Below are positions 1-16,586 of a stretch of DNA of 64,000 nt, one piece after another (positions within the stretch are counted from its first letter, which is position 1; the number at the start of each line of letters is the position of its first letter). This stretch comes from a virus. The position numbers were made by a program, and so were the translations under genes. The notes beneath the pieces were generated by a model that worked only from the letters and a program-made list of their open reading frames with translations, was not told the DNA's origin and did no database searches. The stretch lies in IMG/VR virus record IMGVR_UViG_3300017644_000080, one strand, 5' to 3'.

Positions 1-16
1 AGGAGATCGGATCGTC

Positions 17-451
17 GTGAGCAAAATCAACGTTGCCCTGTCCCTGTTTGTTGAACACGGCCGCCTGAAGGACGCAGCCGACTTCTACGTCGCCGCCTTT
101 GACGCAAAGTCGATCCAGTCCCACAGCCATGAAGGCCAGATAATGGCCGTCGATCTACAGCTGGGAACGCTCAACGTCTCCGTCGTAGGCGCGAATCCCA
201 AGCGGCAGGCCAACCCTTCACTCGGTGGCCCGTTTCATCCTCAAGCCGCAGGAGCTGTCAGCGCCTCTTTGCGGCTGACCGTTGACGATCTCAATGCCGT
301 GTTCGCCAAGGCAGTCGCCGCTGGTGCCACCGTTCGCGACGAAATAGGCTTGGACGATAGAGGGAGCCGATCCGCCTCCTTGTTCGATCCGTTCGGCCAC
401 CTATGGGGCCTATCTCAGCGTGAATCCGAGGACGAGCAACTCGCCGCCTGA
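17..451 (+). CDS. VOC / glyoxalase-PhnB-like small protein (144 aa, GTG start)
   Basis: Size and C-terminal DPFGHLWGL-type motif typical of the VOC (glyoxalase/bleomycin-resistance/PhnB) fold; recalled family resemblance only. Confidence 0.55.
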   Translation: MSKINVALSLFVEHGRLKDAADFYVAAFDAKSIQSHSHEGQIMAVDLQLGTLNVSVVGANPKRQANPSLGGPFHPQAAGAVSASLRLTVDDLNAVFAKAVAAGATVRDEIGLDDRGSRSASLFDPFGHLWGLSQRESEDEQLAA

Positions 452-544
452 ACTGTCTCACCCGACCTGTTGATCCGCGCTTGATGGTGGGAGCTGAAAG
501 CCGATGCTCCCGCCATGGATGCCGACTGGCAAGCTACTATGCCT

Positions 545-1393
545 TTAGCGAAACGGCTGGGACTTTCGCGCGAAGAAGGCAATGATTAGTGGGGGAATGG
601 TACCAAGAACCACTGAGACGCAGCCAACCACAAACTCCGCTGTGGTTGGCCAAGTCGGCCAAGCTGAAAAATCGATACCCGAGAAAAATTGTGTTCTCCC
701 CAAGAGGCACACGCCAGCAACCAAGGTCGCAAATATCTTCCAAAGAGGTATTCTGTGCAAGCCACTCGATAATGGCGCAAGACGAGCCACCAAGATGAGC
801 GCAAACGCGAACAATGCCGCCGCAGGCATTGGTGTCAACCGAGGTTTCGGTGAGGCCTGTTCTACAAGAACAGGAAAACCTGCAATGGGTAACAACCATT
901 CAAATACTGACTGATAATAACCCAGAAGGCCAACTAACGACAGAAGGATAGTCATAAACCATCCAACTAGACCAAAAACAAAAATATGCATAATCGGCAG
1001 CATGAACAAGGAACGACCAAACTCCTCGTACCGTAGCCTTAGGTACCGGATAAAACCAATATCGCTTGGTATATCCTCCTCTGGAGCGATAACGGGCGCA
1101 ACTATGCGACTGATCAACCACGCGTAGAGAAAATTACGGAGGCTTGGAGCATGCCCAGTCTCCTCTATTGATACCCGCACCCAAAACAGCAAAGCGGGGA
1201 GATAAAGAAGCGAAAGACAATCGATGGTCACCCATACACGCTCGAATATACCTCCTCTGCCTGAAGAGAATTCGGGCAGAGGAAATCTTGGGTCGACATT
1301 GGTCACGCGCACGAAGTACCAAGTTCCGATTATGTTCATCAACACGAACAAAATAATAACTACTATCCCCAACAGAGTTCCGAAGAATTCCAT
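545..1393 (-). CDS. polytopic inner-membrane protein, unknown function (282 aa)
   Basis: Multiple long hydrophobic segments throughout the translation; no recognisable catalytic motif. Confidence 0.5.
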   Translation of the reverse strand: MEFFGTLLGIVVIILFVLMNIIGTWYFVRVTNVDPRFPLPEFSSGRGGIFERVWVTIDCLSLLYLPALLFWVRVSIEETGHAPSLRNFLYAWLISRIVAPVIAPEEDIPSDIGFIRYLRLRYEEFGRSLFMLPIMHIFVFGLVGWFMTILLSLVGLLGYYQSVFEWLLPIAGFPVLVEQASPKPRLTPMPAAALFAFALILVARLAPLSSGLHRIPLWKIFATLVAGVCLLGRTQFFSGIDFSAWPTWPTTAEFVVGCVSVVLGTIPPLIIAFFARKSQPFR

Positions 1394-1540
1394 GCGAGGC
1401 CCCCTTGCTCGATTGAATGAACGCCGAGACTATTCCTGTTATTGTGGCAAATGCAACAGTAGAAAGCGTTATGCCTGCTCCAGCACGATTGGCGTTCTTT
1501 AAGCAATCGCACGCTGTCGGTCAGGAAGCCTGCTTCGCCT

Positions 1541-2143
1541 CTAGGTGGATCTACGCCGAGGTAGTCGGCGCGGGTTAGCAACACGCCACCCATTATAGTG
1601 GGGATGATTTGTCAGATAATATTCTATCGCTACAGTAGCCACATTTCGGAAGTTTTCATCGTTCCATAGTGCAATGATGCTCTTCCTCTTAAGACGATCC
1701 GTCTGCTTTGATCCCTGGTAAATCCAACCCAGATAGGCATCGAGTTTCCGTTTGTCCCGATTTTCCCAATGTCCATGCGGAACAGACGGAAAATAATCTG
1801 GGTCTCCCGGTCGGAAGAACCAATTCTTTAATCCACCAGCATCGGTCATGAAATGGATGTCGCCATGATCATCATGCCCTATTGAGCGTTCAACCAAGTC
1901 CCCTTTCTCATCTTCCTCTACCAATTCGCTTGGGCCATGGCCCCATTCATCGTCAATATGCCAATCATTTTGTCGTACGACTTCTTGTGCGAAAGCAGTG
2001 GCGGCGTCGTCTGGGTGTCCAATCTGTGACAGCACGGACATCCGTTCGAGATAGATCGTCCTTTGGATAAGGTCGAACTTGAGGGACATTCCCGTCAGAA
2101 ACAAAAAGTCTTGTGCGGCTTCTGTCGATAGAAATCTTGTCAC
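1541..2143 (-). CDS. hypothetical protein (200 aa), His/Asp-rich
   Basis: Long ORF with coherent codon usage; HDDHGD and HGHWENRD stretches suggest metal binding; no family recognised. Confidence 0.4.
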   Translation of the reverse strand: MTRFLSTEAAQDFLFLTGMSLKFDLIQRTIYLERMSVLSQIGHPDDAATAFAQEVVRQNDWHIDDEWGHGPSELVEEDEKGDLVERSIGHDDHGDIHFMTDAGGLKNWFFRPGDPDYFPSVPHGHWENRDKRKLDAYLGWIYQGSKQTDRLKRKSIIALWNDENFRNVATVAIEYYLTNHPHYNGWRVANPRRLPRRRST

Positions 2144-2261
2144 TTGTATTTCCGATGAATGGAGATTTTCGAAATCATAAATAGCTCCCTTCTGCTTGGA
2201 CGAAGAAGCGGAAGAGAGCTATAAGTCACCCTAGGAAAAGGATTAGCGCAAGAGTGCTCGT

Positions 2262-2603
2262 TCAAGCATTGTCGGAATTCGGCTGCTCGCGCTTTGCATC
2301 TTCAATCATGATGGAGTCACGGTATCTCGCTCTCAGCGCCAGATCGGGAACCGGAGTGTCGACTTCCGACATAAAGCCAAGATAAATGTTTGCCCAAGGA
2401 TCGTTTACCCAACGATGCCTCCGATAGATCGCAACGGCTTCATCTTTAACCGCTCGGTCTCCCTTTGCGAACCGAGTGATGACATCAATCTCATCGTTCG
2501 TGAGTTCTGTCTGCTCTTCTTTCTTGGGAGCAGTCGTTATCGGACCTGTCCCGAACAAATTGCTGAAGAAGTCACCCCAGATGCTCATGAAAATCCCTTC
2601 CAA
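2262..2603 (-). CDS. hypothetical protein (113 aa)
   Basis: ORF 9 nt downstream of the preceding minus-strand gene (stop 2613, start 2603); likely last gene of the metallophosphoesterase operon. Confidence 0.35.
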   Translation of the reverse strand: MEGIFMSIWGDFFSNLFGTGPITTAPKKEEQTELTNDEIDVITRFAKGDRAVKDEAVAIYRRHRWVNDPWANIYLGFMSEVDTPVPDLALRARYRDSIMIEDAKREQPNSDNA

Positions 2604-2612
2604 CGAATGATG

Positions 2613-3023
2613 CTATCGCTCTTCTACAGCGGTTAGAATTCCAGCCTCAGCGCCATCGACCTCTTTACCATTGCGTTTGGAGGTGATCTTCGGAAGCGGT
2701 TCCAACCCAGCGCGCTCGCGCATCTCTTCAAGGGGGACGATCTCATAGATTTCATCGATGACCTTGCGCCTGCGGTTGCTGAAGTCTGGCAAGAGCGGAG
2801 GCAAGAACCTCAAGACCCGTTTGCAAAACTCGATCAGATACACAAACGGCAACACCATCACAAAAATGATCGCCAACGGCAACATCGTAAATCGCTCGCA
2901 TAACTTGTAGAATGCAGCCTTATCAATCAGATGCCTGATCTCAGGGCAGGCGCGAGCTACCTTGATTTCACGGAAGTAGCCGCGACGGGGAGATACGAAG
3001 CGCCAAGGGAAGAATGGCTTCAT
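2613..3023 (-). CDS. hypothetical small membrane protein (136 aa)
   Basis: Hydrophobic central segment; start overlaps the stop of the upstream metallophosphoesterase by 4 nt (ATGA coupling). Confidence 0.4.
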   Translation of the reverse strand: MKPFFPWRFVSPRRGYFREIKVARACPEIRHLIDKAAFYKLCERFTMLPLAIIFVMVLPFVYLIEFCKRVLRFLPPLLPDFSNRRRKVIDEIYEIVPLEEMRERAGLEPLPKITSKRNGKEVDGAEAGILTAVEER

Positions 3024-3817
3024 CGCTTCCCCCCTTGGAACTGGTAACGAGGATCATCCAGGTCGATGATGAGATCGAACTGATACTCGCGGTTCTCGTT
3101 CACATAACCACGAGGATTGACGACGATATGAGTGTCATGAACCTGGTAGTCGAACGAGTTATGGACGTGACCATGCAGGCACAGATGAGGCCTGTATTCG
3201 TAGATCAGGTCGTCGAGGTTCGAGACGAACGACGAATTCAACGGATCGCCAGCAAACCGTCTGTGCACCGACAGCGGGTGAACGCCATGGTGGGTCACCA
3301 GAACGGTCTTGCCGTCGAACGGTCGAGCCAGCGCTTCCTCGATGAAAGCCCGCGATGCGATGTGCATGTCGAGCAGATGCTTCGGCATCAGGCGGGTATA
3401 CGGCTCCTTCCGATATTTGATCTGGTTGAAGTCGTTCATCGAACCAAGGGCGGACATCATGCCCAAGCCTTGGTCGCCCATGAGCTTGTAATCGGTCCAT
3501 AGCGTCGCGCCAATGAATCGAACGCCGTCGATCACCACCTCGTCGTTTTCAAGGAAGTGAATGTTCGGATACTTCTTGGCAACCTCACGAGCCTCAGCCA
3601 AACCATCGACCAGCGAGCCACGATAATATTCGTGGTTGCCCGCGACATAGATCGTTGGAACGTTGATGTGCTTGGCAATCCATTCGATGCCGCGCGCTGG
3701 AGATTTATTGACCAGATCACCTGTGCACACGCACACGTCCACACCTTCTGGCACCTTAAATCGGTGCGAGATGTCGTCAAATTCCAGGTGCAGATCCGAT
3801 AGCGGCCACAGTTTCAT
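3020..3817 (-). CDS. calcineurin-like metallophosphoesterase (265 aa), paralog of 17188-17997
   Basis: N-terminal LSDLHLE (DxH), GDLV (GD), GNHEYY (GNHE), and C-terminal HGHVH motifs of the calcineurin-like phosphoesterase fold. Confidence 0.8.
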   Translation of the reverse strand: MKLWPLSDLHLEFDDISHRFKVPEGVDVCVCTGDLVNKSPARGIEWIAKHINVPTIYVAGNHEYYRGSLVDGLAEAREVAKKYPNIHFLENDEVVIDGVRFIGATLWTDYKLMGDQGLGMMSALGSMNDFNQIKYRKEPYTRLMPKHLLDMHIASRAFIEEALARPFDGKTVLVTHHGVHPLSVHRRFAGDPLNSSFVSNLDDLIYEYRPHLCLHGHVHNSFDYQVHDTHIVVNPRGYVNENREYQFDLIIDLDDPRYQFQGGKR

Positions 3818-4057
3818 CTGAAAACTCCTTTCATCATTGTGTATGCACGAATTTTACAAGGCTGACAATAATAGGATTTTAGTTAATTCAGGGTGCGGCT
3901 ATTTATTTAGTAATTTAGATTGAATTGGCCATTAAAATAAGGAATATTGGTCTCGCTTTTTCATGGAGAATAGCGCGAGTTTACGAATAACGGAAAACGG
4001 GCCAATCCTACGTTATCGACGCGCTCCTGTGGATTGGCAACGACCTAAGGAGCGCAA
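3818..4057. promoter_or_regulatory. AT-rich divergent promoter region between metallophosphoesterase and RlmN-like operon
   Basis: 240-bp AT-rich gap between divergently oriented starts; AAGGAG Shine-Dalgarno 6 nt before the ATG at 4058. Confidence 0.4.
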
Positions 4058-4948
4058 ATGTCGACGAAATATGTGAATGGCTACGAAATTCTACCCTCGA
4101 AATTCGACCCCAGCATTAATTTCTCCAAGGCAACTAACGACGGCGGTATGATCGAAACCCGTTTCGTGCAGCGCCTGAAAGAGCGATTTATCGTCTATAT
4201 TTCATCGATGTCCGGCTGCGATAAGGCCTGCCGTTTCTGCCATCTAACTCAGACGGGCCAGACTATGGCCATGAACCTGACACGCGAACAGATGCTCGAA
4301 CAGGCTGAGACCGTTCTATCTTCGGCAGTCTACCCAGAAGCTAAGACCGTCCATTACAATTTCATGGCGCGTGGCGAGCCGATGACCAATCCAATGGTCA
4401 ATAAACATCTCTTCCATGATCTAAAGCTAGCGGCCGAGAAGCGCGGACTGTTCCCGCGCATCAAAATTTCCAGCATTCTTCCAACCGATTTTCACGCTTT
4501 CGATCCTGCAGTTCTATGGGACGAATCTAGTCCTGCAATTGACTTCTACTATTCGCTCTACAACACCGATCAGGCGTGGCGTAAGCGGTGGATTCCAAAG
4601 GCCCTGCAGCCGCAAGAAGCTCTTGCCTGGCTTGCCAAGTGGCAGCAGGTCACTGGCAATCGCGTCATTCTACATTGGGCGCTAATCGATGGTGAAAACG
4701 ACAGCGAGGCCAATGCACGTGAGGCGGCGCGTCTGGCGAACGAGGCTGGCCTGAATTGGGATTTCAATCTCGTCCGATACAATCCGGCCAACGACAAATC
4801 CAAGGAAGCTTCCGAGGAGCAGATCGAGCGATTTCTATCGGTGCTGCGCGCTGAGATCAACGATGCAAACCGCGTAAAGGTCATCCCACGCGTTGGTTTC
4901 GACGTCAAAGCTTCTTGCGGAATGTTTCTAACGCCTGAGGCAGCGTAA
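4058..4948 (+). CDS. RlmN/Cfr-family radical SAM protein, N-terminally truncated (296 aa)
   Basis: IVYISSMSGCDKACRFC aligns with RlmN TLCVSSQVGCALECKFC (CxxxCxxC cluster); GEPMTN matches the GEPLLN SAM motif; C-terminal KASCGMF matches the methyl-carrier Cys motif AACGQL; ~65 aa shorter at the N-terminus than RlmN; Tyr at the resolving-Cys position. Confidence 0.7.
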   Translation: MSTKYVNGYEILPSKFDPSINFSKATNDGGMIETRFVQRLKERFIVYISSMSGCDKACRFCHLTQTGQTMAMNLTREQMLEQAETVLSSAVYPEAKTVHYNFMARGEPMTNPMVNKHLFHDLKLAAEKRGLFPRIKISSILPTDFHAFDPAVLWDESSPAIDFYYSLYNTDQAWRKRWIPKALQPQEALAWLAKWQQVTGNRVILHWALIDGENDSEANAREAARLANEAGLNWDFNLVRYNPANDKSKEASEEQIERFLSVLRAEINDANRVKVIPRVGFDVKASCGMFLTPEAA

Positions 4949-5021
4949 CTGTAAAATCGGCCGACGATTTTGTTTAGCGAACGGCACCTCCTAATATGAG
5001 TAAGAAAGGAGGGCCATTGAC

Positions 5022-5969
5022 ATGCCTAATACACACCCAAATTCAACAGCCAAAACAGCTGCCGCAGCCGCCTTACTATTTGGTTCCCAACAAGATTTTG
5101 TGAGCGATTTCAGTAGACGAGTCCAGAGGGAAGTAGACAACTTTCTTGAGAATCAAATTGTCTACAAAGAGGGGTGGTATTCATGTAGCGACGAAATGCT
5201 TTCAGCCGCACCGACGTATCTAATAAGAGGTGCCTACGGTATGGCAAATGCCAATCCGTCAACCTTGGACATTATCGACGCCATTAATGGTCTGGCGGGA
5301 CTTGATCCCGATAAGGCGAAAATATTGAACAACGAAGGATTTGGCAAAACAACAACCTTTGAAGGTCATAGACTCTTAAATCAGTTCTACCAGCTTCGTA
5401 AGCTGACCATTGACGACTTAAGCACGGGCGTAAAATTAGTGTCGCCAGATGTCGAGAAATCTCATTTTAGCCAGATCGTTAAATTATGTTCCGAGTGCAC
5501 AAACATTCCCCTTGAAGACGTATCACGAACCTTAAAAGCGCGATTTCAAAGTGGAGACATATACAAAAGTGAGAGGATAAGGGTCGCGATTGACCCGAAC
5601 TTCTCTTTTAACAGTATTACTTATATTTGGGCAGAAAATGGCCGTATTGGCATTCACTGCAGTTCAAACGATATCAAAGATTACGCTGCTTTCAGGAGGC
5701 TCCTAAAAGACACCACGGCTTACGCGGACGCGTTTTCCGACATGGAAACAGGATTCAGTCCCAACGCGACTAGAGTTATCAATGGTGAAGAGAAAAAATT
5801 CAAAACACTATGGTTCCCCGAGGAAACGGCGGGGGAAATTGTCAGCTTTGCCATATTGCGTGAAAACACAATAATTTCTAAGTCGATTCTGGACGAATTT
5901 GGCTATGGTTTTGCGCCAGATGAACCGACTCCAGATGACGACCCAGAACTGCCAACGTTAAAACATTAA
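5022..5969 (+). CDS. hypothetical protein (315 aa), low-GC
   Basis: ORF 73 nt after the RlmN-like gene on the same strand; AT-richer than flanking DNA; no motif recognised. Confidence 0.5.
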   Translation: MPNTHPNSTAKTAAAAALLFGSQQDFVSDFSRRVQREVDNFLENQIVYKEGWYSCSDEMLSAAPTYLIRGAYGMANANPSTLDIIDAINGLAGLDPDKAKILNNEGFGKTTTFEGHRLLNQFYQLRKLTIDDLSTGVKLVSPDVEKSHFSQIVKLCSECTNIPLEDVSRTLKARFQSGDIYKSERIRVAIDPNFSFNSITYIWAENGRIGIHCSSNDIKDYAAFRRLLKDTTAYADAFSDMETGFSPNATRVINGEEKKFKTLWFPEETAGEIVSFAILRENTIISKSILDEFGYGFAPDEPTPDDDPELPTLKH

Positions 5970-5987
5970 TCACTGGTTGGTTTCCTG

Positions 5988-6755
5988 TTGCTCTATTATG
6001 ATTCCTACGAGGGCAACAGGAGCAAAGCAATGGATGTCAACACGATCAAAGAACGCGTAGAGGAATACGTCGAACAACAGATTGACGCCAATGTTTTTGA
6101 ACGTCCGCTCGCGGCCAATGCATGCATTGCGAGCGCCATCGCATATGCAGTCGGCAAAGGTACAAAGGACGAGCTGTCTCTGCTCCAGAAGACAACTATC
6201 CTTCTTCAGCTACCAGCCTTCGATAAATTCAGGATTGGCTATTATTCCGATCCCGATGACGAGCTTTCGAGCATCTTAGAACACGCGTTCGAAAAGGAAA
6301 TCGCGAGGCTATTCAAGAGCACGCACGTAAAGATCGCGGCCGAAACCATCGGCAGGCACCTTATCGCGGATGCTGAAGCCGCGTTAGAGATCGCGGAATA
6401 TCGTGATGATAGTGCATTCATCGATAGAATGGCACGAAATCAAGTCAGGGCGGCAATTCGACACCTAAAAGACCGAACAGCAGCTGAAGTCGACGTCGCC
6501 ACAGCAATCGACGCTGGTAGCATTTTAGGAGGCCTCAGATCGCGCCGGAATGATCACAAGCTCCATGTTCAACATGGAACAACCATCGAGCGCATCGACC
6601 AAATCACCGAAAAGCTGCGGCAACTCGATGTGCTAGCGCGTCCACATAAAAACGCCGACATGGATGCAGCCATTCTCGAAATGGTTGTAGACCTGAATAA
6701 TCAGAAGCCTGTCCTTGAGCAGGATGAAGGCACCGCGCCGTCAGTAGGCATGTAG
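5988..6755 (+). CDS. hypothetical protein (255 aa)
   Basis: ORF 18 nt after the previous gene; followed by a strong terminator. Confidence 0.5.
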   Translation: MLYYDSYEGNRSKAMDVNTIKERVEEYVEQQIDANVFERPLAANACIASAIAYAVGKGTKDELSLLQKTTILLQLPAFDKFRIGYYSDPDDELSSILEHAFEKEIARLFKSTHVKIAAETIGRHLIADAEAALEIAEYRDDSAFIDRMARNQVRAAIRHLKDRTAAEVDVATAIDAGSILGGLRSRRNDHKLHVQHGTTIERIDQITEKLRQLDVLARPHKNADMDAAILEMVVDLNNQKPVLEQDEGTAPSVGM

Positions 6756-6781
6756 TCTGGCTTGCCATATACAAGAATCCA

Positions 6782-6806
6782 AAGGGCGCTCGAAGCGCCC
6801 TTTTTG
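6782..6806. terminator. rho-independent terminator (bidirectional position)
   Basis: GGGCGC-tcgaa-GCGCCC hairpin followed by TTTTT; lies between convergent genes ending at 6755 and 6810. Confidence 0.7.
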
Positions 6807-6809
6807 TTG

Positions 6810-9794
6810 TCAGAATTTCAGCTTCAAGCCGACATTGAACGACGTCGCCAGCTTCCCTCCATCAGTAGGAATCTGGACCTCACCACCGTTCACAATCGAA
6901 AGCCTGTCGTTGAAGCTGTACTCGGCATACGATCCCAGAACGACGTTGGTCTTGCCGCGACGTGCGCCTTCCGAGGTGAATTCCGAACCGCTGATCGAGA
7001 GATCACGGCGGGACTTCGTGATGTCATGAGTGACTGCAACCTTGCCATAGAGACCAAGATCGCCCTTCCCGAGCTTGCGTTTGCCGCCGAACTTCACCCC
7101 GACTTCCGGACGGAACAGCTCGGTGCTCGATTTGCCGCTTTCTACGCCGCCAATGCCAGCTTCAGAGAAGGCATCTGTGCGCGAGTGGATGTAGGTCCCG
7201 GCGACGTACGGCGTGACGGTGTAAGCACCGAGCTGCGCGATATCGTAACCGAGTTCGACTTTGCCTGCGAAGACATTACCGCGATAGTCCGTACCCAGCT
7301 GATCGCCGAGACCGAAAATCGAACGAGTGACTTCGAACTTCTGACGCCCGTAAGCGACCTGGCCATTAAGAACCCACTTGTCATGGTTGAGGCCCGCATA
7401 GGCTCCGCCGAAATAGGTGTCGATATGATTGTCATTTGCCTGACCAGACACTTCGACCTTCATCGTATTCCAACCGCCGTAAACGCCAGCGACCAGATCG
7501 CTTGAAATTCGCTTGTCCATGCCGAAAACAACGCCGCCCAGAGCGTAGACAGCGTCTGACGCACCGTTTCTGCCCTTCAGACCGCCTACGCCACCGATGC
7601 CGTCCATCCAGTAGCCAGTCGTCTGATTGCGATCCAGACGAAGCTCATCGAGACGGTTGCTGATGCGGGACATAGGGATGTCAAGCGAGACAAGGCCAGC
7701 CTGCACCATCGACGGATGGACATCGCCTGAAATCTCTTCGAGGGCATTCCTGACTGCTTCGGCAGTGTCGAGCTGTTGAACACCAGCTCCCAGTTTAATC
7801 AGGTCGTTTGAGGCCAGCACAACTGATGTTTCGCCAGTCTTGTCAGCCTGAGATGCGACACTTTTTTCGATCAGCGTGGCAGACTGACAGGCGTTCGAGC
7901 TACCGCAAATGCTGCTCTCAGCAATCGAGGCTACGTCATAGCTGACGACAACATCATTACTCGTCAGATGATAGGCCCCGTTGACGAGATAGGTCGGTCG
8001 GAAATCGAAGCTTCCGAAATTTCCCGTAATCCCGCCCGCAGCAGACATAACGCTCGTCTGCCCATTGCGGACATAGGCATTCTCCACACCATCGATAGCG
8101 AGAAGGCCACCATTGATCGTCGCAGTTCCTGCAACATCGAGTTTGGAGCCGAGTACAACCGACAGCGAGCCGCCATCGTTGACGTAGTTGCCGTTGACCT
8201 TGAGCGTGCCAGTGTAAGGCCAGCCTGCATGCAAGATACCTTTGGAAGTAACATTGCCGAGCTGGCCATCGCCCCCAACGATGCCATTTTCTCCGATGTA
8301 GGTGTTGCCAATGATCAAACCATTTACGACCAGCGCACCATCATTGACGGTGGTCCCGCCCGTGTAGGTGTTGTTTCCAGCCAGTCGAAGAGTGCCATTG
8401 CCGTTCTTCACGAGACCGCCAGCACCGGAGATGTCGTTCTGCCAAACTGAACCGCCAGAAAACGAGACATTGAAGTCACCCCAATCGAATTTGCTAGGTC
8501 CACGAATGGCTTTGGCGACGTCGACCATACCGTAACCGAATACAGGATCGACACCTGGCGCACCGATATCACGCGCAGTACCGAGCAGAACCTGCCCGAT
8601 TTGGTCGCCCTTCATATAAGGAAACGTCTGCTTCACGAGGGCGGCCGACGCCGAGACCACAGGTGCTGCCGCCGATGTGCCCGCAAATAACTGAGAACCG
8701 CTCTCATAGGCATAGGTTGGCATGTCGATATTGACCGGAGCCGCGAGGCAGTATTTTGCGACCGGACCACACTTATTCGAATAACCTGGCATCTCTCCAG
8801 CATCGTTGACGGCAACGACGGTCAGATAACCGCCCGTCTGGAGACGGGAATCTGTGAGCTGCATTGCACCCCAATCACCTGGGTAGTCCTTGGAGTCGTT
8901 GGACGCTGACCAGACAAACAACATACCATGCTGATCGACATATTTGGCTGCTATCTGACGGAAATAATCGATGCCCGCCCCAACGGTACCGCCCTCTGAA
9001 AGGCTCCAACTCTTGGTTCCGATGGAATGGTTCACAATCGACACTCCATCGTTCAGCATGTCGGAATAAATCTGCTCGAATGTGGTATATGAAACGCTTC
9101 CGCCACGATCAAATAAATGGGCCTGAGAAACCTTGGCTCCTGGAGCTATACCGCCAACATAGCCCGCATTATTCTGCCAAGTTGAATCTGCATTTCCGGC
9201 AATAATCATGGAAACGCTGTCGCCATGGTTCGTATTCGTCTCTTGACTATTTTCAACATAATTGCGGAAGGCGACAATCTTGTCCTTCAGATATTTACCT
9301 TCTCCGCTGAAGCCAGTGTCCACGACGCCGACCACAACATTCTGTCCCGTGATACCTCGCGCGTAGGCATCGTGAGCGCCGAGCGTGGCCATCGTCCGCG
9401 ACGTTCTCGTCTTATAAATTACGGGTATCTGATAGGAGGCCTGCCGTGGAATCGGGACGTTCGCTAGGAATGCGCTGGCAGATCGACCGATGCCCTGAAC
9501 TGCAGATGGAATGGCTCGGCCTGGATCACGAAGCGCATCGATAGCCTTGTTTCCTACAACATCGACATATCTGAGCGCGGGAATGTATTTTTCACCGATT
9601 TCAGAGAATGGCGGGTTTTCACCCGGCGGTGGAGGTGGTGGTGTCCATCCTCCACCGCCGCCACCATTGCCAGGGCCGCCGCTGCCAGGATTACTGGGAC
9701 CATCCGAACCGCCACCGCCTCCACAAGCAGTCAGAAACGAGGTCGCCAGCAGAGCTGAGATAAGAAGCGTTTTTCTGATTTTTGAATTATCCAA
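6810..9794 (-). CDS. autotransporter with subtilisin-like (S8) serine protease passenger domain, lipoprotein-type signal (994 aa)
   Basis: N-terminal signal with LTAC lipobox and Gly-rich linker; S8 triad motifs VVGVVDTGF (Asp), HGDSVSMIIAG (His), GTSAAAPVVSASAALV (Ser); Gly-rich repeat passenger; C-terminal ~280-aa beta-barrel-like domain ending ...LKLKF. Confidence 0.85.
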   Translation of the reverse strand: MDNSKIRKTLLISALLATSFLTACGGGGGSDGPSNPGSGGPGNGGGGGGWTPPPPPPGENPPFSEIGEKYIPALRYVDVVGNKAIDALRDPGRAIPSAVQGIGRSASAFLANVPIPRQASYQIPVIYKTRTSRTMATLGAHDAYARGITGQNVVVGVVDTGFSGEGKYLKDKIVAFRNYVENSQETNTNHGDSVSMIIAGNADSTWQNNAGYVGGIAPGAKVSQAHLFDRGGSVSYTTFEQIYSDMLNDGVSIVNHSIGTKSWSLSEGGTVGAGIDYFRQIAAKYVDQHGMLFVWSASNDSKDYPGDWGAMQLTDSRLQTGGYLTVVAVNDAGEMPGYSNKCGPVAKYCLAAPVNIDMPTYAYESGSQLFAGTSAAAPVVSASAALVKQTFPYMKGDQIGQVLLGTARDIGAPGVDPVFGYGMVDVAKAIRGPSKFDWGDFNVSFSGGSVWQNDISGAGGLVKNGNGTLRLAGNNTYTGGTTVNDGALVVNGLIIGNTYIGENGIVGGDGQLGNVTSKGILHAGWPYTGTLKVNGNYVNDGGSLSVVLGSKLDVAGTATINGGLLAIDGVENAYVRNGQTSVMSAAGGITGNFGSFDFRPTYLVNGAYHLTSNDVVVSYDVASIAESSICGSSNACQSATLIEKSVASQADKTGETSVVLASNDLIKLGAGVQQLDTAEAVRNALEEISGDVHPSMVQAGLVSLDIPMSRISNRLDELRLDRNQTTGYWMDGIGGVGGLKGRNGASDAVYALGGVVFGMDKRISSDLVAGVYGGWNTMKVEVSGQANDNHIDTYFGGAYAGLNHDKWVLNGQVAYGRQKFEVTRSIFGLGDQLGTDYRGNVFAGKVELGYDIAQLGAYTVTPYVAGTYIHSRTDAFSEAGIGGVESGKSSTELFRPEVGVKFGGKRKLGKGDLGLYGKVAVTHDITKSRRDLSISGSEFTSEGARRGKTNVVLGSYAEYSFNDRLSIVNGGEVQIPTDGGKLATSFNVGLKLKF

Positions 9795-10137
9795 AACAGT
9801 TCTCCAAAAACGGCGAGATTATTCTCGCAATAACTTATTTATTGTTCAATTTTTATCCATCACGGGCAATTGCTCTTTTCTAGCTCAAACAAAAATTGCG
9901 AACAAATTAATGAAACGCCATCTAAAGCGTTGATTTCTAAGATGATTAAAGCTTGATACTCAAACTTACGTTGAACGACTTTGCCATCTTGTTGCCATCT
10001 GTCGGCAATTTCGGGTCAGAACCGTCACTTCTGCCAATTATCGAGAGTATGTTTTATTAGGATAAAAGACCCAATTCTCTTGCTGTTTTTCGGTATTCAT
10101 GCAAATTGAAGACCGAGACTAATAATTGGAGAGTTAA

Positions 10138-10593
10138 GTGGCCGTAGAAATTGAACGCAAGTTCCTTGTGAAAGACGATAGCTGGAAGGCGCACGTCGTC
10201 AGTAGCTATCACATCATTCAGGGATATCTCGTTGGCGAGCCAACTCTTGCAGTCCGCCTTCGGATTATAGACGACAAGGAAGCCCTTCTGACGATCAAGG
10301 GCAAGGGCGAAGGCATCGCACGTCCTGAATACGAGTACCCAATCCCGCTCGAAGACGCCAAGGGAATGCTGGCAATGTGTGGCACACGCGTGCTTGAGAA
10401 GACGCGCCATCTGATCAATGCCAACGACGGCCTCAAGTGGGAAGTCGATGTGTTCGCTGGTCGGCGCGCTGGTCTCGTTCTTGCAGAGATCGAGTTACCA
10501 AGTCTCGACACCGAGATTGAGCTGCCTGAATGGGCGGGCGAAGACGTGAGCGAGGACCCTCGTTATTTTAACGCAGTGCTGGCATTCACGTGA
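10138..10593 (+). CDS. CYTH-domain protein (CyaB/thiamine-triphosphatase-like), 151 aa
   Basis: N-terminal EIERKFLV motif (ExExK signature of CYTH) and typical size. Confidence 0.75.
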   Translation: MAVEIERKFLVKDDSWKAHVVSSYHIIQGYLVGEPTLAVRLRIIDDKEALLTIKGKGEGIARPEYEYPIPLEDAKGMLAMCGTRVLEKTRHLINANDGLKWEVDVFAGRRAGLVLAEIELPSLDTEIELPEWAGEDVSEDPRYFNAVLAFT

Positions 10594-10675
10594 AGGCAGG
10601 ACAACCTTTAAGATAGGTTGCGAAGCCTTTGGCTGACGAAGGCGGAAGCCTGGCGGACAGGATGTAATGATGACG

Positions 10676-11485
10676 TCAGCCGTGCATTTGCATGGCTGGC
10701 CGATAATTGCCCAAAAACCTCATGCAACTGTCGTCGAAATCGCAATTTATGAACTCGATGAGATCGTCATAAAGATCGTCGTTGCTACCCTGCCAAGCGA
10801 AGTGAAAGCGATCCTGAACATAGCGCCTGTTATCGGATAGGAAGGTTGTGAGAGCCTCCAAATCTTCCTCGATGTCGCGCTCCTCCTCCACGCCATCCTC
10901 CACTGCTCTGCCCAGGGCGTTGAGTTTTTCTGACATCTGGCTTTCACTAAGGCCGTTATACGAGAACTGATATTCTCGGGCCATTCCGACACATAAGTTT
11001 TCGACATAAGCGACATCCGCCCCAACGGTTTTCAGAACGGTGTGCATGTCATCCAGACACTCGTCCGCGAATGCCCCAACGAGATGGACCTTTTTGCCTT
11101 TCAGACTATGGTGCCAAGGATCAATTTCGAGAATGTGTCCATCACCTTCGTCGTAATATGGACGGGTGGCGTCACACCACGTAATTCCACGGTTCTCTTC
11201 CGAAATCTGATCAGGATCATAGTCATATTGGTCTTTGGTCCAGCCATAACCGTACTCGAAGCGTCGGAACTGTATCCCTTCTGTCCTGCAAAATTCCTCA
11301 ATTCGCACTTGCTGCGACTCGACCTCATGTTCATCGAAGAAGGACATGATGACTTCGTCCAGGTCATCCTTATTATTGTCGAGGAAGTCCATAATTTTCG
11401 ACAATTCAGTATCGATGTCAGTGCCGAATTTCTTCAATCCGGCATCCCACATCTCCTCGAAGTGATGGATAACAAGAACCGCCAT
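10676..11485 (-). CDS. highly acidic hypothetical protein (269 aa)
   Basis: Asp/Glu-rich throughout; no catalytic motif recognised. Confidence 0.45.
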   Translation of the reverse strand: MAVLVIHHFEEMWDAGLKKFGTDIDTELSKIMDFLDNNKDDLDEVIMSFFDEHEVESQQVRIEEFCRTEGIQFRRFEYGYGWTKDQYDYDPDQISEENRGITWCDATRPYYDEGDGHILEIDPWHHSLKGKKVHLVGAFADECLDDMHTVLKTVGADVAYVENLCVGMAREYQFSYNGLSESQMSEKLNALGRAVEDGVEEERDIEEDLEALTTFLSDNRRYVQDRFHFAWQGSNDDLYDDLIEFINCDFDDSCMRFLGNYRPAMQMHG

Positions 11486-11494
11486 ATTGCCTCC

Positions 11495-12253
11495 TCACAT
11501 CGCCATGGCAGGCCTTCTCGAAAGCTCGCGGTGAGCAACGAGGCCAGCAGTGATGTCACGAACAAGCGGCGTATTCCGAAGCCTATCCAGGAAGAATTCT
11601 GGCTTAAGCAAGTAGCTTTCTTTTGGGTCCATTCTGAAGCTCAGGGAACCATCGTCAGCCATATCAAGGATGTAGCGCATGCGATTGAGCTTGTAGCCGT
11701 CGTTAAGCACGCCCATAGCGCCTTCAGGGTGAGCGTCGACTAGTGGGCAGATATATTTCTCTGCCTTGCTGCGGCTGCAGCTGTCGATGACGATGTCGAG
11801 ACGGATCAGGAGTTCGAGAGCGCTCTTTTCGCCAGGGTTGCTAATACGAGAATTGGCGTCGACCCACAGATGAGGGTAGCTCCCAGTCGCTTTATGAAAA
11901 TTCTCAAGGGAATGTTCTGCAACGTAAATATTCCCTTTATTCCAGTCACCATTATCGCGACGGTAATATCGGTACAAAAATGCTGGGCCACCCATAGTTA
12001 CGCCATAGGCCCCGTTACCCAGATCGACCTCTGAAAAACTACGATCATCATTTTGCTGGTAAAATGTGCGCCCTGATAGAACGTCTTCAATGCAGGCCGG
12101 AACCATTCTCATTCCCAATTCCCTTTTCATTTCTGCATGCCATGACCATTTTTTGTCACATATCAAACGAGGGTTCTGGCAAATTCCCACCAGCCATCTT
12201 AATCCATTGTTTGAACTAATTTCTGCATTCGACAAGCGATACATCTGAGGCAT
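11495..12253 (-). CDS. hypothetical protein (252 aa)
   Basis: ORF 9 nt upstream of the acidic protein on the same strand, likely co-transcribed. Confidence 0.45.
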   Translation of the reverse strand: MPQMYRLSNAEISSNNGLRWLVGICQNPRLICDKKWSWHAEMKRELGMRMVPACIEDVLSGRTFYQQNDDRSFSEVDLGNGAYGVTMGGPAFLYRYYRRDNGDWNKGNIYVAEHSLENFHKATGSYPHLWVDANSRISNPGEKSALELLIRLDIVIDSCSRSKAEKYICPLVDAHPEGAMGVLNDGYKLNRMRYILDMADDGSLSFRMDPKESYLLKPEFFLDRLRNTPLVRDITAGLVAHRELSRRPAMAM

Positions 12254-13125
12254 TGTTTTTCCGCGAGAGGCACCGTAAATACCACTCAGCCAACTCGGTT
12301 GGTGCTTTGAGGAGATTGTTTGTGCTGATATCTACGTTGTTCATGGTTTCTTCGCTTGTGCTGGTCACGCCAGACAACATGCAATTGCCTGTTCGTTCGG
12401 ACGGTCCTGATTTTCGGATCTTTGAAAGCTCAGGCCTCGCGACCGAAAATGCGAAGGCCTCGGCTCGCATGACCAAGGAATCGGTCCTTGAATGGTGCGA
12501 TGCCAATCGTCCCGAGGAAGACAAGGACGAATGCGTCGGCAACTATATGGTAGACACGGTCTACCAGGCATCCGCCAACTGCAAAACCGGACTTCTCACT
12601 GACACCGATGGCGAGCAGTACCAGTACCTCGGCAAGGAAACCAAAGATGCCAACTGGCTTGGATACCCAACCTTCAAGGATGCCAAGGGCAAGAAGGTTC
12701 CGATGTCGTATGCTGGCGGTGGCATAGGCGTAGCCGCAATGTGGTGGACGCTCTGCCCGAACGTCACGCCCTATGACATTCAGCCCCTGAAGACGAAGCT
12801 GGAGAAATCCGACTTCTCCAAGGACACCAAGTCCGGCACGCTCGATGGCAAAAAGGTGATCGTCGACTACGGCAAGGGCGTAATCTCAGACACTGGCAAC
12901 AACGTTCTGTTCCGTGGAACGATCATCAAGAACGGCCCAATCGTCGGCATCTTCTATAAGCAGGCGGAAGGTTGCGACGCAGTTCCCTACATCGTCGAAG
13001 GCCATACCAATACCGACCAGAAGCGCAGGAAGATTCTGTCGCTAGCGGGAGCCGAACCTGCGCTCGAAGGTTGCAAGGTAGTCGGCAAGAAAGAGAACTT
13101 CCAGATGACTGTGACGCTGAAGTAG
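12253..13125 (+). CDS. probable secreted hypothetical protein (290 aa)
   Basis: N-terminal hydrophobic stretch LFVLISTLFMVSSLVLV consistent with a signal or anchor; true start may be an internal Met. Confidence 0.45.
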   Translation: MFFRERHRKYHSANSVGALRRLFVLISTLFMVSSLVLVTPDNMQLPVRSDGPDFRIFESSGLATENAKASARMTKESVLEWCDANRPEEDKDECVGNYMVDTVYQASANCKTGLLTDTDGEQYQYLGKETKDANWLGYPTFKDAKGKKVPMSYAGGGIGVAAMWWTLCPNVTPYDIQPLKTKLEKSDFSKDTKSGTLDGKKVIVDYGKGVISDTGNNVLFRGTIIKNGPIVGIFYKQAEGCDAVPYIVEGHTNTDQKRRKILSLAGAEPALEGCKVVGKKENFQMTVTLK

Positions 13126-13140
13126 CGTTAGCCAGAACAC

Positions 13141-13172
13141 AAACGGGCACCAATTGGTGCCCGTTTCGTTTC
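13141..13172. terminator. rho-independent terminator between convergent genes
   Basis: AAACGGGCACC-aatt-GGTGCCCGTTT hairpin followed by a T-rich run. Confidence 0.6.
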
Positions 13173-13689
13173 AATCGCTCTGATCTTCCAATTCCGCTTC
13201 CTGTTGAGCCTCGATCAGCACCTTCCGCAGCTTCGGTGACATCATGCTGATCGAAGTGGCTTCAGCCTCTTTGATCCTGTCGCAAATCTCGGCATGCCCC
13301 TTCTCGGCTTCGTCCCAAGTCGAGTAGCGAGCGAGGAGGCCGTAATCATGCTGAAAGTCGAGTTTCTGCTGCTTATCCCCGAGTGCCTGGACCTGTCGCT
13401 CGAACACCATAGTCTCGAAGATATGCGGTGGACCATCGCGAAAAAGATTGTGATCCAAGGACAGGAAGACCGTTGAGATCGTTGAAACGGCCGTGCGTGT
13501 CAGCGCCACCTGCCGATTGGGAGCATCTATACCTTCACCTGGGCCGGGGAAACCTTCCACAGGGACCGCTTCACGCCCAACCAGCTTGTACCACCTGCCT
13601 AGCGGATTCTTATCGTCCATAATCATGTGCAGACCATAGCCGAAGGTTCTGGAGACGCAAAGAGCCTCCCGAAAGAGGCTCCATCGCAA
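13171..13689 (-). CDS. hypothetical protein (172 aa)
   Basis: ORF directly downstream (1 nt) of the 82-aa ORF; last gene of the MazG-like operon before the terminator. Confidence 0.45.
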   Translation of the reverse strand: MRWSLFREALCVSRTFGYGLHMIMDDKNPLGRWYKLVGREAVPVEGFPGPGEGIDAPNRQVALTRTAVSTISTVFLSLDHNLFRDGPPHIFETMVFERQVQALGDKQQKLDFQHDYGLLARYSTWDEAEKGHAEICDRIKEAEATSISMMSPKLRKVLIEAQQEAELEDQSD

Positions 13690-13938
13690 TCAGTTGGCGA
13701 CGGCCAAAGCGGCTAAGGTCTTCTCAAGAGGCTTCCAATGTGGACAAGTCCACTTCGACTTTCGCTCGCGGCCGCTCGGGAGAATTCCGAAATCGCATGA
13801 CGATGGATGATCGACATCGACTACGCAGCGCGACGGTTTTTCGCCCTCGTCGTATTCGACAAAGCACAGATGTCGAACTCCATTCTTGTAATCGGACTGA
13901 TCATCCGCATAAACTGTGCTCTTTAAATCTTCTTCCAT
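13690..13938 (-). CDS. small Cys-containing hypothetical protein (82 aa)
   Basis: Four spaced Cys (C..C...C..C) could form a small Zn-binding module; no family recognised. Confidence 0.3.
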   Translation of the reverse strand: MEEDLKSTVYADDQSDYKNGVRHLCFVEYDEGEKPSRCVVDVDHPSSCDFGILPSGRERKSKWTCPHWKPLEKTLAALAVAN

Positions 13939-13976
13939 AAACCGAACTCCTTTTAATTGCCTTAATTAAAGAAATT

Positions 13977-14540
13977 CTAATTATTGTCAATATTTTTTTG
14001 GCTACTGGAAATAGCAATAGAAAATCTCGGTTCCGCGATCCCCGTTCCGCAGGTCCACTCGTAACCCTTATATTTACGCGAGCTATATGAACCCACTTCG
14101 ACGCCGTCTATCTCAAGATCGTAGCCAATTCCAGTCGGAACGATGTCAGGAGATATTCCGGAAATTTCCGTCATAAATGTTCGAGCATCGAGAGCAATCT
14201 CGAAATCCCTGCCATCGTAGGCATTCGTATCAAACAGCTCGACCTTCATGAAATATGGATGATGCGTAGCGTCAAAAACAGGTTCCTTGCGGAAACAAGG
14301 CGTCAGAGACACGAACTTCCCCTGCCCCAGTGTGCCGTTCATCAGGGCATCGACAAACGACTGTTCCGCAGACCCGACCAAAAGACCAAGATCGCGCAGT
14401 TCATAGGCGCGGCCGAGATCATCCAGTGTCGACTGAATACCGTCAAGGCTCGCATGCCACGGGAGATTTACCCTCTTGTAGTCCCGCGCCTCATACCATT
14501 GAAGCGCGGCGACAAGATATTCCCAATTAACGGCGACCAT
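13977..14540 (-). CDS. mini class-II aminoacyl-tRNA-synthetase-like catalytic core (SerRS-like), ~187 aa
   Basis: LTPCFRKEP...HHPYFMKVELF resembles SerRS motif 2 (TPCFRSEAGS...HQFNKVELV, as in the SerRS in this same window); GTGIAEPRFSIAI resembles motif 3 (GSGVAVGRLLIAI); start taken at the internal Met MVAVN that overlaps the upstream gene's stop by 14 nt; the 54-codon N-terminal extension in the ORF track is read-through of the upstream gene. Confidence 0.4.
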   Translation of the reverse strand: MVAVNWEYLVAALQWYEARDYKRVNLPWHASLDGIQSTLDDLGRAYELRDLGLLVGSAEQSFVDALMNGTLGQGKFVSLTPCFRKEPVFDATHHPYFMKVELFDTNAYDGRDFEIALDARTFMTEISGISPDIVPTGIGYDLEIDGVEVGSYSSRKYKGYEWTCGTGIAEPRFSIAISSSQKNIDNN

Positions 14541-15345
14541 TCGCAAATGCCCTCGCAGTGACCGCTGCCATCTCGCGCAGGCTCTGAAGCGAGATCGATG
14601 GATGATGCTTATCGAGATAGGCTTCAATAGCGCCCTGAAGATCAGCCAGCTCCACCAGAGCCATGATATCCACGCCCTGATTGATCGCATCCATGAACTC
14701 ATTGACCTCTTCCATGATCTTCGAAGGCTCGCCTAGAACGCCCTTCTCGATCTCGGCCAGGTGATATCCCGGCTTCGACTTCTTCGGCAGGAGGTCAGTG
14801 ATGTAATCCCAAAGGGTGTCAGCATCGATCTTGCGCTCGAACGGACAAATAGACGGACCATTCACTTCGCGAATGACGTTCGCCAGATCCTTGATGATCG
14901 GGCCGCGCTCCAGATAGGTGATCGCCTTCGTGGCACGGATGCGGTGGAAACCAGTTTCAGCGAACTCGTAACTGGTGCCAGCGCTCATGTGATAGGTGCT
15001 GCCCTGACGCAGGAAGCCGCGTGCTACCGGAACAGGGTCTTTGCTATCGCCAGGCTTACAGGACACCTGAACGATCTCGTGGTCGCCTTCAGGCGAGTTT
15101 TCCAGAAACCACTCTTCATGGGTGATGTTGCCGAGGAGAATATGAGAGTGGAACCGATATCGATGATCGTGGAGTTCCTCTTCCGGCGTGTCGGCCAGCA
15201 ACTCAGGATGCCAGAAGTGAATTCGGGTGTCCTTGGTGAGTTTCAGCTGGATAAATCCGAGACCGAACCAGTGTGGTGAGGATCCGAAAGAACGCAGGTA
15301 GTCGACGTCCAGAAATTGATCCAGACGGCCGTTAAAAATGCCCAT
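14527..15345 (-). CDS. two-domain protein: N-terminal His-rich domain of unknown function + C-terminal MazG-like NTP pyrophosphohydrolase domain (272 aa)
   Basis: C-terminal EEVNEFMDAI ... ELADLQGAIEAY matches the all-alpha MazG/HisE pyrophosphohydrolase signature; N-terminal HFWHP...HDHRYRFHSH cluster suggests a metal site (cupin or oxygenase-like?) but no family recognised. Confidence 0.55.
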   Translation of the reverse strand: MGIFNGRLDQFLDVDYLRSFGSSPHWFGLGFIQLKLTKDTRIHFWHPELLADTPEEELHDHRYRFHSHILLGNITHEEWFLENSPEGDHEIVQVSCKPGDSKDPVPVARGFLRQGSTYHMSAGTSYEFAETGFHRIRATKAITYLERGPIIKDLANVIREVNGPSICPFERKIDADTLWDYITDLLPKKSKPGYHLAEIEKGVLGEPSKIMEEVNEFMDAINQGVDIMALVELADLQGAIEAYLDKHHPSISLQSLREMAAVTARAFANGRR

Positions 15346-15493
15346 AGCGAGACCTCTTTTTATTGGAATTCATGTCCTATGGGAGGACTTATTTTCTGGA
15401 TCGTCAACCTGATCTTCGGATTAATTATGCCAACAATATCTACAAAAAGGGCCTCAAGATTATCTCCGAGGCCCCAACTCTCAAAAATACAGT

Positions 15494-16072: not shown

Positions 16073-16146
16073 GACACTAACAATGAAAAAATCGAGCTTG
16101 CTGGTTTGGGATATGCAGCCTACCTTTGAAAGTATAAAGGCGAGAA

Positions 16147-16533: not shown

Positions 16534-16553
16534 GCAGCCTAATATTCTTGAAT

Positions 16554-16586
16554 GAAAAACCCGCCGATTGGCGGGTTCATTGTTTC
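16554..16586. terminator. rho-independent terminator (bidirectional position)
   Basis: AAAAACCCGCC-gatt-GGCGGGTT hairpin followed by cattgtttc; between convergent genes ending at 16533 and 16599. Confidence 0.65.

Follow-up and report, generated by a model that had tools for sequence, protein, structure and literature searches.

A short RlmN/Cfr-fold radical SAM family with an invariant tyrosine at the resolving-cysteine position, found in jumbo-phage tRNA arrays and in Rhizobiales

Can an enzyme built on the RlmN/Cfr scaffold work when a tyrosine stands where the cysteine that resolves the covalent enzyme-RNA intermediate should be? This question is raised by a gene at positions 4058–4948 (+) of the IMG/VR virus record IMGVR_UViG_3300017644_000080, a 64,000-nucleotide stretch of DNA that we analysed at its full length and refer to as the window. 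The gene encodes a short RlmN/Cfr-fold radical S-adenosylmethionine (SAM) protein of 296 amino acids (aa), hereafter the rSAM protein, a member of PHROG family 27142 in which Y47 occupies the position of RlmN C118, whereas the cluster ligands (C54, C58 and C61), M103 (RlmN M176) and the methyl-carrier cysteine C287 (RlmN C355) are kept. We tentatively favor, at somewhat less than even confidence, the reading that the protein is a stand-alone RNA-modifying, probably tRNA-modifying, class-A-like methylase of the RlmN type with tyrosine-assisted resolution, where the substrate is inferred from the phage context of the family, and the reaction and the role of Tyr47 from the retained active-site residues.

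An RlmN/Cfr-fold family with tyrosine for the resolving cysteine

RlmN is a dual-specificity class A radical SAM methylase that acts on C2 of A2503 in 23S rRNA and of A37 in tRNA, whereas Cfr methylates C8 of 23S rRNA A2503 and confers resistance to phenicols, lincosamides, oxazolidinones, pleuromutilins and streptogramin A (PhLOPSA). In both enzymes, SAM methylates the C-terminal cysteine (C355), and the 5'-deoxyadenosyl radical takes a hydrogen from the methyl-cysteine, which, now a radical itself, then adds to C2 or C8 of the adenine to give a protein-RNA cross-link (PMC9692996). RlmN C118 faces that carbon from the opposite side and acts chiefly as the general base triggering radical fragmentation, with M176 proposed to stabilize the resulting cysteinyl radical (PMC9692996). 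Class A is defined by these two conserved cysteines, and in RlmN C118A, as in the corresponding variant of Cfr, the covalent adduct becomes trapped (PMC9692996).

Judged by its sequence, the 296-aa protein is a relative of these enzymes but is neither RlmN nor Cfr. It scored 72.1 bits against the NCBIfam RlmN model TIGR00048, short of the 290-bit cut-off, and 60–61 bits against the Cfr models, short of cut-offs of 530–550 bits; the match to Pfam Radical_SAM was below threshold, and a search against PADLOC produced no match. The full-length match is to PHROG 27142, a jumbo-phage family labeled ‘Fe-S-cluster redox domain-containing’ (E 2.5e-83, protein residues 13–291 on profile positions 10–299 of 300). 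When a profile of the family was compared to all PDB sequences, only Cfr (3.7e-21) and RlmN (1e-11 to 9e-18) matched. The fold is that of RlmN as well: an AlphaFold2 model built from 66 homologues reached a predicted local distance difference test (pLDDT) score of 91.5 and a predicted template-modeling score (pTM) of 0.89, the low-confidence exception being the C-terminal tail (286–296) that carries C287, and its top 11 Foldseek matches in PDB were RlmN (5HR7, 3RFA, 4PL1/2), 6FZ6 and Cfr (TM 0.58–0.72, E 1e-13 to 4e-10), with TM of 0.66–0.72 to 5HR7, 3RFA and related RlmN entries. Lipoyl synthase (LipA), PFL-activase (PFL-AE) and viperin were far weaker matches.

Public pipelines label the homologues ‘RlmN’, ‘Fe-S-cluster redox domain’, ‘radical SAM’ or ‘hypothetical’, and the first of these labels would fit a housekeeping rlmN gene with a mis-called start. 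This explanation, which we consider practically excluded, is refuted by the reading frame: in-frame stops are located four codons 5' of the ATG at 4058, ruling out a longer N-terminus, and this ATG is preceded, at 7 nt, by an AAGGAG ribosome-binding site. The family-wide length of about 290–300 aa, the score against TIGR00048 and the phage genes that are the closest relatives all argue in the same direction, and unlike housekeeping RlmN, the rSAM gene is accessory and occurs sporadically, in phages and Rhizobiales. The labels ‘RlmN’ and ‘rRNA large subunit methyltransferase N’ on members of this family are, then, over-calls. What the protein lacks is the N-terminal helical, RNA-contacting domain. 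The initial annotation put the missing part at about 65 residues, in good agreement with the approximately 62–73 residues indicated by the TIGR00048 alignment, which spans model positions 79–341 of 355 and starts around E. coli RlmN residue 90.

Cfr is the solved structure that best matches the family by sequence, and the family shares with it a ‘NLIRYNP’-type motif and the C-terminal cysteine, so a Cfr-like resistance methylase acting on 23S rRNA A2503, one of the possibilities raised initially, deserves mention. Given the scores far below the Cfr cut-offs, the missing N-domain, the tyrosine in place of the Cfr resolving cysteine (C105), and its occurrence in soil Rhizobiales and lytic jumbo phages, outside any context of resistance genes, we regard it as highly improbable.

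HMMER alignments to the solved chains of RlmN (3RF9, 4PL1, 5HR6), of the Sphaerobacter RlmN-like protein (6FZ6) and of Cfr (9P0P) are gap-free around the cluster loop and bear out the residue assignments made originally. C54/C58/C61 align with RlmN C125/C129/C132, a CX3CX2C cluster in the RlmN placement; C287 aligns with C355, within the motif ASCGMF (AACGQL in RlmN); M103 aligns with M176, and E33 with E105. Y47 falls on residue 118 of E. coli RlmN, which is Ala in the crystallized C118A proteins, with a spacing to the first cluster cysteine of 7 residues, equal to that in RlmN, and the tyrosine is found at this position in the alignments to both the RlmN and the Cfr chains.

This tyrosine is no peculiarity of the window. 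Among 256 members of the family, drawn from bacterial, viral-contig and metagenomic sequences and as little as about 36% identical, position 47 is Tyr in 255 of 255 (one sequence has a gap there) and position 287 is Cys in all 256; the GEP, NDS and RYNP motifs of the SAM site and M103 are likewise invariant. Apart from C287, cysteine is conserved only at the three cluster positions, so that, at the level of sequence, no alternative resolving residue emerges, and the family departs from the two-cysteine definition of class A, with Tyr47 in place of the second cysteine. The replacement is thus a family trait rather than a local defect. Its invariance argues for a catalytic role of Tyr47 rather than a knock-out, as mere loss of function would tolerate any residue. 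Additional swaps relative to RlmN and Cfr are also invariant in the family, namely, YYSLY for xxSLH (Y164, Y165, Y168), ARGEP for GMGEP (R105) and HW for EY (H206). The ratio of nonsynonymous to synonymous substitution rates (dN/dS) is 0.05–0.08 for the rSAM gene, compared with 0.2–0.3 for flanking genes, indicating that the gene is functional and under strong purifying selection.

Phage tRNA arrays and the predicted reaction

We collected 60 viral and 80 metagenomic loci encoding the rSAM protein (numbered with the prefix L) and clustered the neighboring open reading frames (ORFs) over 138 of them. Neighboring protein families recur in 13 loci at most; a metallophosphoesterase (MPE), which is the divergent neighbor in the window, does so in 11, and among the approximately 60 viral loci, in 3. 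Given the absence of any more widespread neighbor, the rSAM gene is inherited as a single, stand-alone gene.

What recurs around the gene in phages is tRNA. ARAGORN identified tRNA genes within 6 kb in 22 of the 60 viral loci (19 of 60 in a second run), and a tRNA gene lies within 700 bp of the rSAM gene in 17 of 137 loci, or in 9 of 60 lineages after collapsing at 65% identity. In seven loci (L048, L057, L105, L119, L134, L114, L019), tRNA genes are present on both sides of the rSAM gene, with up to 21 in 12.8 kb. The complete, 307-kb genome of phage D6 is a clear case: all 14 annotated tRNA genes are located within 9948–19000, the rSAM gene follows 372 bp on, at 19372–20265, and RtcB is encoded 1.2 kb after it, at 21462–22724. 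In our locus for this Pseudomonas phage (L159, 2541–15317), the tRNA complement comes first, and one small ORF separates it from the rSAM gene, which two more small ORFs separate from RtcB; here, the rSAM gene is annotated ‘rRNA large subunit methyltransferase N’, and the tRNA array also contains HNH endonuclease and ‘galactose oxidase’ genes. In another lineage, a CCA-adding enzyme is encoded 1.7–2.1 kb from the rSAM gene; in L028, the rSAM gene directly follows a SpoU-family RNA methylase gene and a tRNA gene; and in L134 and L114, the arrays that include the rSAM gene also contain ATP-dependent ligases. We considered RtcB, the CCA-adding enzyme or an RLIG1-like ligase as parts of a conserved cassette and rejected this possibility, each being limited to one lineage; they are independent hints only.

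To gauge this association, we took viral loci around MPE-family genes as a control, keeping the collection and the flank identical. tRNA genes were present in 32% of the rSAM loci versus 11% of the control loci (Fisher P 0.005); for tRNA genes no further than 700 bp away, the figures were 15% and 2.5% (Fisher P 0.009). This comparison takes no account of phylogeny, and the control has a different contig mix. Because the phage rSAM genes are embedded in tRNA arrays and located near genes for tRNA repair and processing, the substrate is most likely RNA, with tRNA as the leading candidate. RlmN itself acts on tRNA, which fits this context, and the suggestion of the initial annotation that the protein modifies a non-rRNA substrate gains support accordingly.

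The retention of the counterparts of C355, M176 and E105 and of the SAM motifs suggests that the methyl-cysteine chemistry has been kept, with Tyr47 as a base or a hydrogen-atom relay. In the predicted cycle, C287 on the flexible C-terminal tail would be methylated by SAM, a second SAM molecule would be cleaved at the C54/C58/C61 cluster, and the methyl-cysteine radical would add to an adenine carbon; Tyr47, acting as general base or hydrogen-atom relay, would then allow the protein-RNA adduct to fragment and the enzyme to turn over. A tyrosine could, in principle, fill the general-base role of C118.

Several observations, in addition to the limits of the control comparison, weigh against the tRNA-methylase reading. 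Arrays of tRNA genes are general hot spots for accessory genes, and the bacterial copies of the rSAM gene, including that in the window, are not near tRNA genes. The domain with which RlmN and Cfr contact RNA is absent from the family. The family-wide changes at Y164, Y165, Y168, R105 and H206 imply that the substrate or the reaction may differ from those of RlmN; taken together with the missing N-domain, such a re-tooled pocket means that the modification site or the reaction may differ from the formation of 2- or 8-methyladenosine (m2A/m8A). Finally, a literature search covering RlmN in combination with phage, jumbo phage, Cys118 or tyrosine, as well as gp434, the phages Psa21, Phabio and D6, and m2A/m8A in combination with phage tRNA, found no paper on the PHROG 27142-type family and no biochemistry for any member.

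These changes could instead mark a scaffold re-tooled for another substrate, such as a free or signaling nucleotide, DNA or a protein, with C287 serving as a hydrogen-atom donor or nucleophile. Loss of the RNA-binding domain and the invariance of Y47 along with the five swapped residues would be in line with this explanation, as would the bacterial partner, an MPE weakly similar to cyclic-nucleotide phosphodiesterases and to a PADLOC defense candidate, and the variable, defense-island-like bacterial settings with KAP NTPase, AbiEii and HipA. Yet the methyl-carrier cysteine, its flanking motif and M103 are all kept, the tRNA arrays and the proximity to RtcB, the CCA-adding enzyme and SpoU point to RNA, and in most phages the MPE is unlinked to the rSAM gene. 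We therefore consider a different substrate or chemistry unlikely, although it is the alternative to which we give the most weight.

The missing cysteine also brings up the possibility, put forward in the initial annotation as a trapping toxin, that the protein is a single-turnover cross-linker, remaining covalently bound to its RNA target and thereby inactivating it. The adduct-trapping variants of RlmN and Cfr provide the precedent (PMC9692996), the PDB entry 5HR7 is among the top fold matches, and the family offers no other conserved cysteine for resolution. A disabling substitution, however, need not be tyrosine in every one of 255 sequences; no conserved immunity or antitoxin partner was detected in the 138 loci; the low dN/dS reflects strong purifying selection in bacterial chromosomes; and an enzyme destroying tRNA from within the tRNA array of a phage would harm the phage itself. 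The idea of a trapping toxin, accordingly, has lost ground and now appears improbable to us.

The divergent metallophosphoesterase operon and the variable downstream slot

In the window and the loci related to it, the conserved partner of the rSAM gene is a divergent MPE operon. The MPE of the window (3020–3817, (–), 265 aa) is a calcineurin-type enzyme (Pfam Metallophos PF00149, 55 bits), as recognized at the outset, that matches phrog_1649 (E 1.3e-54) and PADLOC PDC-S10 (E 4.5e-14); no sequence relatives of it were found in PDB. It is followed by a gene for a 136-aa protein with an apparent hydrophobic, membrane-spanning stretch (2613–3023, (–)), which is conserved together with the MPE and whose start overlaps the MPE stop by 4 bases, an overlap that probably reflects translational coupling. 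The third gene of the operon encodes a small protein of 108–113 aa (2262–2603, (–)) and is kept in the Mesorhizobium-like loci, with partial conservation in L078. The MPE, 136-aa and ~110-aa genes are present in all Mesorhizobium-like loci, and the MPE is conserved near the rSAM gene in L001, L068–L070, L005, L078 and L155. The dN/dS values are 0.02–0.07 for the MPE and 0.02–0.13 for the 136-aa gene. A 162-aa ORF antisense to the MPE gene, inside it (3014–3502, (+)), can almost certainly be dismissed as spurious, a mere shadow of that gene.

The MPE and rSAM genes are separated by an AT-rich divergent intergenic region (3818–4057, 40% GC) that presumably contains the promoters of both; a sigma-70 scan identified no site within it, and it had no Rfam match. 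No riboswitch or other RNA family was detected in window positions 1–12000, and no tRNA gene in the window.

In L005 (Rhizobium sp. MHM7A) and in the metagenomic loci L155 and L078, an Omp85/POTRA gene is located between the MPE and rSAM genes. In 9 loci (including L005, L006, L155, L074 and L078), this gene, encoding 750–770 aa, shares the strand of the rSAM gene and lies 50–60 bp 5' of it; it is absent from the Mesorhizobium-like loci. An outer-membrane protein is a strange partner for an Fe-S enzyme of the cytoplasm. The MPE operons of L005 and L155 also include a gene with an RLIG1 RNA-ligase domain (37–38 bits against a Pfam cut-off of 25). A 200-aa gene of the window was tried as the counterpart of this RLIG1-like gene and rejected, as there is no similarity. 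That gene (1541–2143, (–)) and its neighbor encoding a hydrophobic, probably membrane, 282-aa protein (545–1393, (–)) are 60–70% identical to their counterparts in Mesorhizobium sp. SP-1A and have dN/dS of about 0.25–0.29; the adjoining MPE, 136-aa and rSAM genes are 96–99% identical to those of SP-1A, a sharp local change in divergence. The rhizobial neighborhoods L005, L155 and L006 contain AbiEii, HipA and TnpB, and that of A. rubi R2K/GAAD domains, giving them a defense-island-like appearance.

On the other side, the rSAM gene is followed on the same strand, with gaps of 73 and 60 nt, by two genes, which the initial annotation combined with it into a low-GC three-gene operon. The first, at 5022–5969 (+), encodes a 315-aa protein, for which an AlphaFold2 model (pLDDT 82) had no fold match in PDB. 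The second, at 6030–6755 (+), encodes a lineage-restricted 241-aa protein. It was initially read as 255 aa, from a TTG at 5988, but translation most likely starts at the ATG at 6030: an AGGAG ribosome-binding site precedes this ATG, homology to L001 begins at residue 15 of the 255-aa reading, and the gene is called as 241 aa in L068, L160 and L161. Against a window mean GC of 0.513, the low-GC description holds for the 315-aa gene (0.441) and the divergent intergenic region (0.40), but not for the rSAM gene (0.521), and of the two downstream genes said to be AT-richer, only the 315-aa gene is; the 241-aa gene (0.511) is at the window mean. The strong terminator noted after the last gene is present as an intrinsic-terminator-like hairpin at 6781–6803, with a 10-bp stem, 6 G-C pairs and T tails on both strands; it is bidirectional, located between the 241-aa gene and a convergent autotransporter gene.

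Whether the three genes form one functional system was addressed by comparing the window with L001 (Mesorhizobium sp. SP-1A), L068, L069 and L070, in which the rSAM proteins are 88–96% identical to that of the window. The spacing on one strand and the single terminator after the last gene would suit such a system, as would L160, a short contig in which the upstream side is not covered, where a 321-aa homologue of the 315-aa protein is followed by the 241-aa gene. The rSAM gene is, however, followed by the 241-aa gene only in L001, where window positions 4948–6029 correspond to an indel and the 315-aa gene is absent, and in L068; by no gene before the autotransporter in L069; and, in L070, by genes for a 314-aa protein (37% identical to the 315-aa protein, another point for recurrence), a 112-aa protein and a KAP-family NTPase (L070 8560–10704, (–)), most of the 241-aa gene being missing there. 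Neither downstream gene was found in any phage or more distant bacterial locus, and the GC content of the 315-aa gene is aberrant. Homologues are few: 8 of the 241-aa protein in 5.8 billion proteins, and, for the 315-aa protein, 19 cluster representatives in 1.84 billion proteins in an exhaustive HMMER search, none informative, and only the self-match in a word-indexed search. In tblastn comparisons of both with phages and plasmids, there was no match except for one to the 315-aa protein, at 30% identity, on a Rhizobium leguminosarum replicon. The varying gene sets and the scarcity of homologues identify the slot 3' of the rSAM gene as a site of variable cargo that belongs to no conserved system, and we hold a three-gene functional system to be very unlikely. 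Pfam, NCBIfam and PADLOC profiles had no matches to the 315-, 241/255-, 136-, 113-, 200- and 282-aa proteins.

Beyond the terminator, the window encodes a 994-aa S8-peptidase autotransporter convergent to the cargo genes (6810–9794, (–)), with Peptidase_S8, PATR and Autotransporter domains seen in its L069 and L161 orthologues, and next to it, a CYTH-domain protein (10138–10593, (+)). Both genes are kept in relatives and look like ordinary chromosomal genes. A 241-aa protein encoded further on (13977–14702, (–)) matches phrog_4806, labeled ‘histidyl tRNA synthetase’ (E 1.8e-40), and has 35–40% identical homologues in the rSAM-bearing Caulobacter and Brevundimonas jumbo phages; it has no Pfam domain, and the phage labels conflict (C-terminal domain of the RNA polymerase alpha subunit, seryl- or histidyl-tRNA synthetase). 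The window also encodes a second MPE paralogue (17188–17997, (–)), 40% identical to the first and matching phrog_1649 (E 1e-52), which is divergently paired with a 554-aa AAA+ protein (18074–19738, (+)), so that the likeness between the two divergent arrangements pointed out initially is real. The AAA+ protein matches phrog_29662 over its full length (E 4e-71) and is about 31% identical to the products of genes of the Bacillus jumbo phages PBS1 and AR9. Besides the rSAM gene, this second MPE and the phrog_4806 homologue are further genes of large-phage type in the window. Rhizobium sp. MHM7A (L005), too, has two MPE genes near the rSAM gene.

Origin of the family and a possible role in tRNA repair

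A search of the 5.8-billion-protein set identified 2043 homologues of the rSAM protein; among the 120 listed, nearly all are 290–300 aa long, and several come from chromosomes of Rhizobium, Agrobacterium, Neorhizobium and Pararhizobium. With tblastn, genes encoding 40–44% identical proteins were detected in Pseudomonas phages 201phi2-1 (gp434), Psa21, Phabio and D6, Caulobacter phages CcrColossus and CcrPW, and Brevundimonas jumbo phages. The window matches a 70.7-kb metagenome contig, and the genome closest to its rSAM gene is that of Mesorhizobium sp. SP-1A (96% identity). The GC content of Mesorhizobium is usually above 60%, for which the window mean is low; ‘Mesorhizobium sp. SP-1A’ may be an atypical lineage.

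Two short, RlmN-like, phage-borne proteins, Tunturiibacter phage Tunturi_5 gp170 (L156) and Klebsiella phage 05F01 gene_104 (L157), share the CxxxCxxCH(L/T)T and (A/S)CGMF motifs with the family but are only 24–27% identical to the window protein and have, at the C118 position, Cys and Val, respectively. In 05F01 gene_104, a Cys is found three residues after the Val; this gene is located between an ADP-ribosylation gene and an anaerobic ribonucleotide reductase gene. In a rough neighbor-joining tree, rooted with a canonical phage RlmN-like sequence and lacking support values, these Cys- and Val-bearing short phage forms are basal, branching between canonical RlmN and the rSAM family, and the Rhizobiales clade is nested among viral-contig lineages. 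This topology suggests a phage origin of the clade followed by residence in Rhizobiales chromosomes: the family probably radiated in jumbo phages and was transferred into these chromosomes from there.

The bacterial Pnkp/Hen1 RNA repair system brings together a calcineurin-type MPE, which heals the ends, an RNA ligase, and an RNA methyltransferase that tags the molecule after repair. By analogy only, the combination of the MPE, the RLIG1-like ligase-domain gene and the rSAM gene in L005 and L155 and the placement of the rSAM gene by RtcB in D6-type phages are reminiscent of this system. There are substantial differences: a kinase was not found, the window has no ligase gene and only the MPE and rSAM genes, the rSAM protein is a radical SAM enzyme rather than a Rossmann-fold 2'-O-methyltransferase, and the genes are separate and divided between the two strands. 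A more specific version of the tRNA-methylase reading, which we regard as rather doubtful, is that the rSAM protein is a phage-borne tRNA ‘armoring’ or repair-marking enzyme, domesticated in Rhizobiales, that would methylate a carbon of an adenine, or give it another C-linked mark, at or close to the anticodon loop in tRNAs of both phage and host. The mark would protect these tRNAs against host anticodon nucleases, and the enzyme, by means of a Cys/Tyr pair, would act alongside the enzymes for healing and sealing ends that are encoded next to it in one lineage or another (RtcB, the RLIG1-like ligase, the MPE and the CCA-adding enzyme).

As far as can be judged from the comparisons described here, a radical SAM family with the class A fold that breaks the two-cysteine rule and is associated with phages and their tRNA arrays appears to be new. 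Removing the second cysteine of RlmN or Cfr traps the enzyme on RNA, and yet more than 2000 natural homologues form a family in which that position is an invariant tyrosine and the methyl-carrier cysteine is kept. From this combination, one would expect either that the adduct between protein and RNA is resolved in a new manner or that the RlmN scaffold supports a new reaction. That jumbo phages repeatedly carry the rSAM gene within their tRNA arrays, next to genes for tRNA repair, bears on the questions of why phages carry tRNAs and how they evade tRNA-targeting defenses. If true, the armoring scenario would mean that methyl transfer by class A radical SAM enzymes can rely on a previously undescribed Cys/Tyr pair instead of the Cys/Cys pair.

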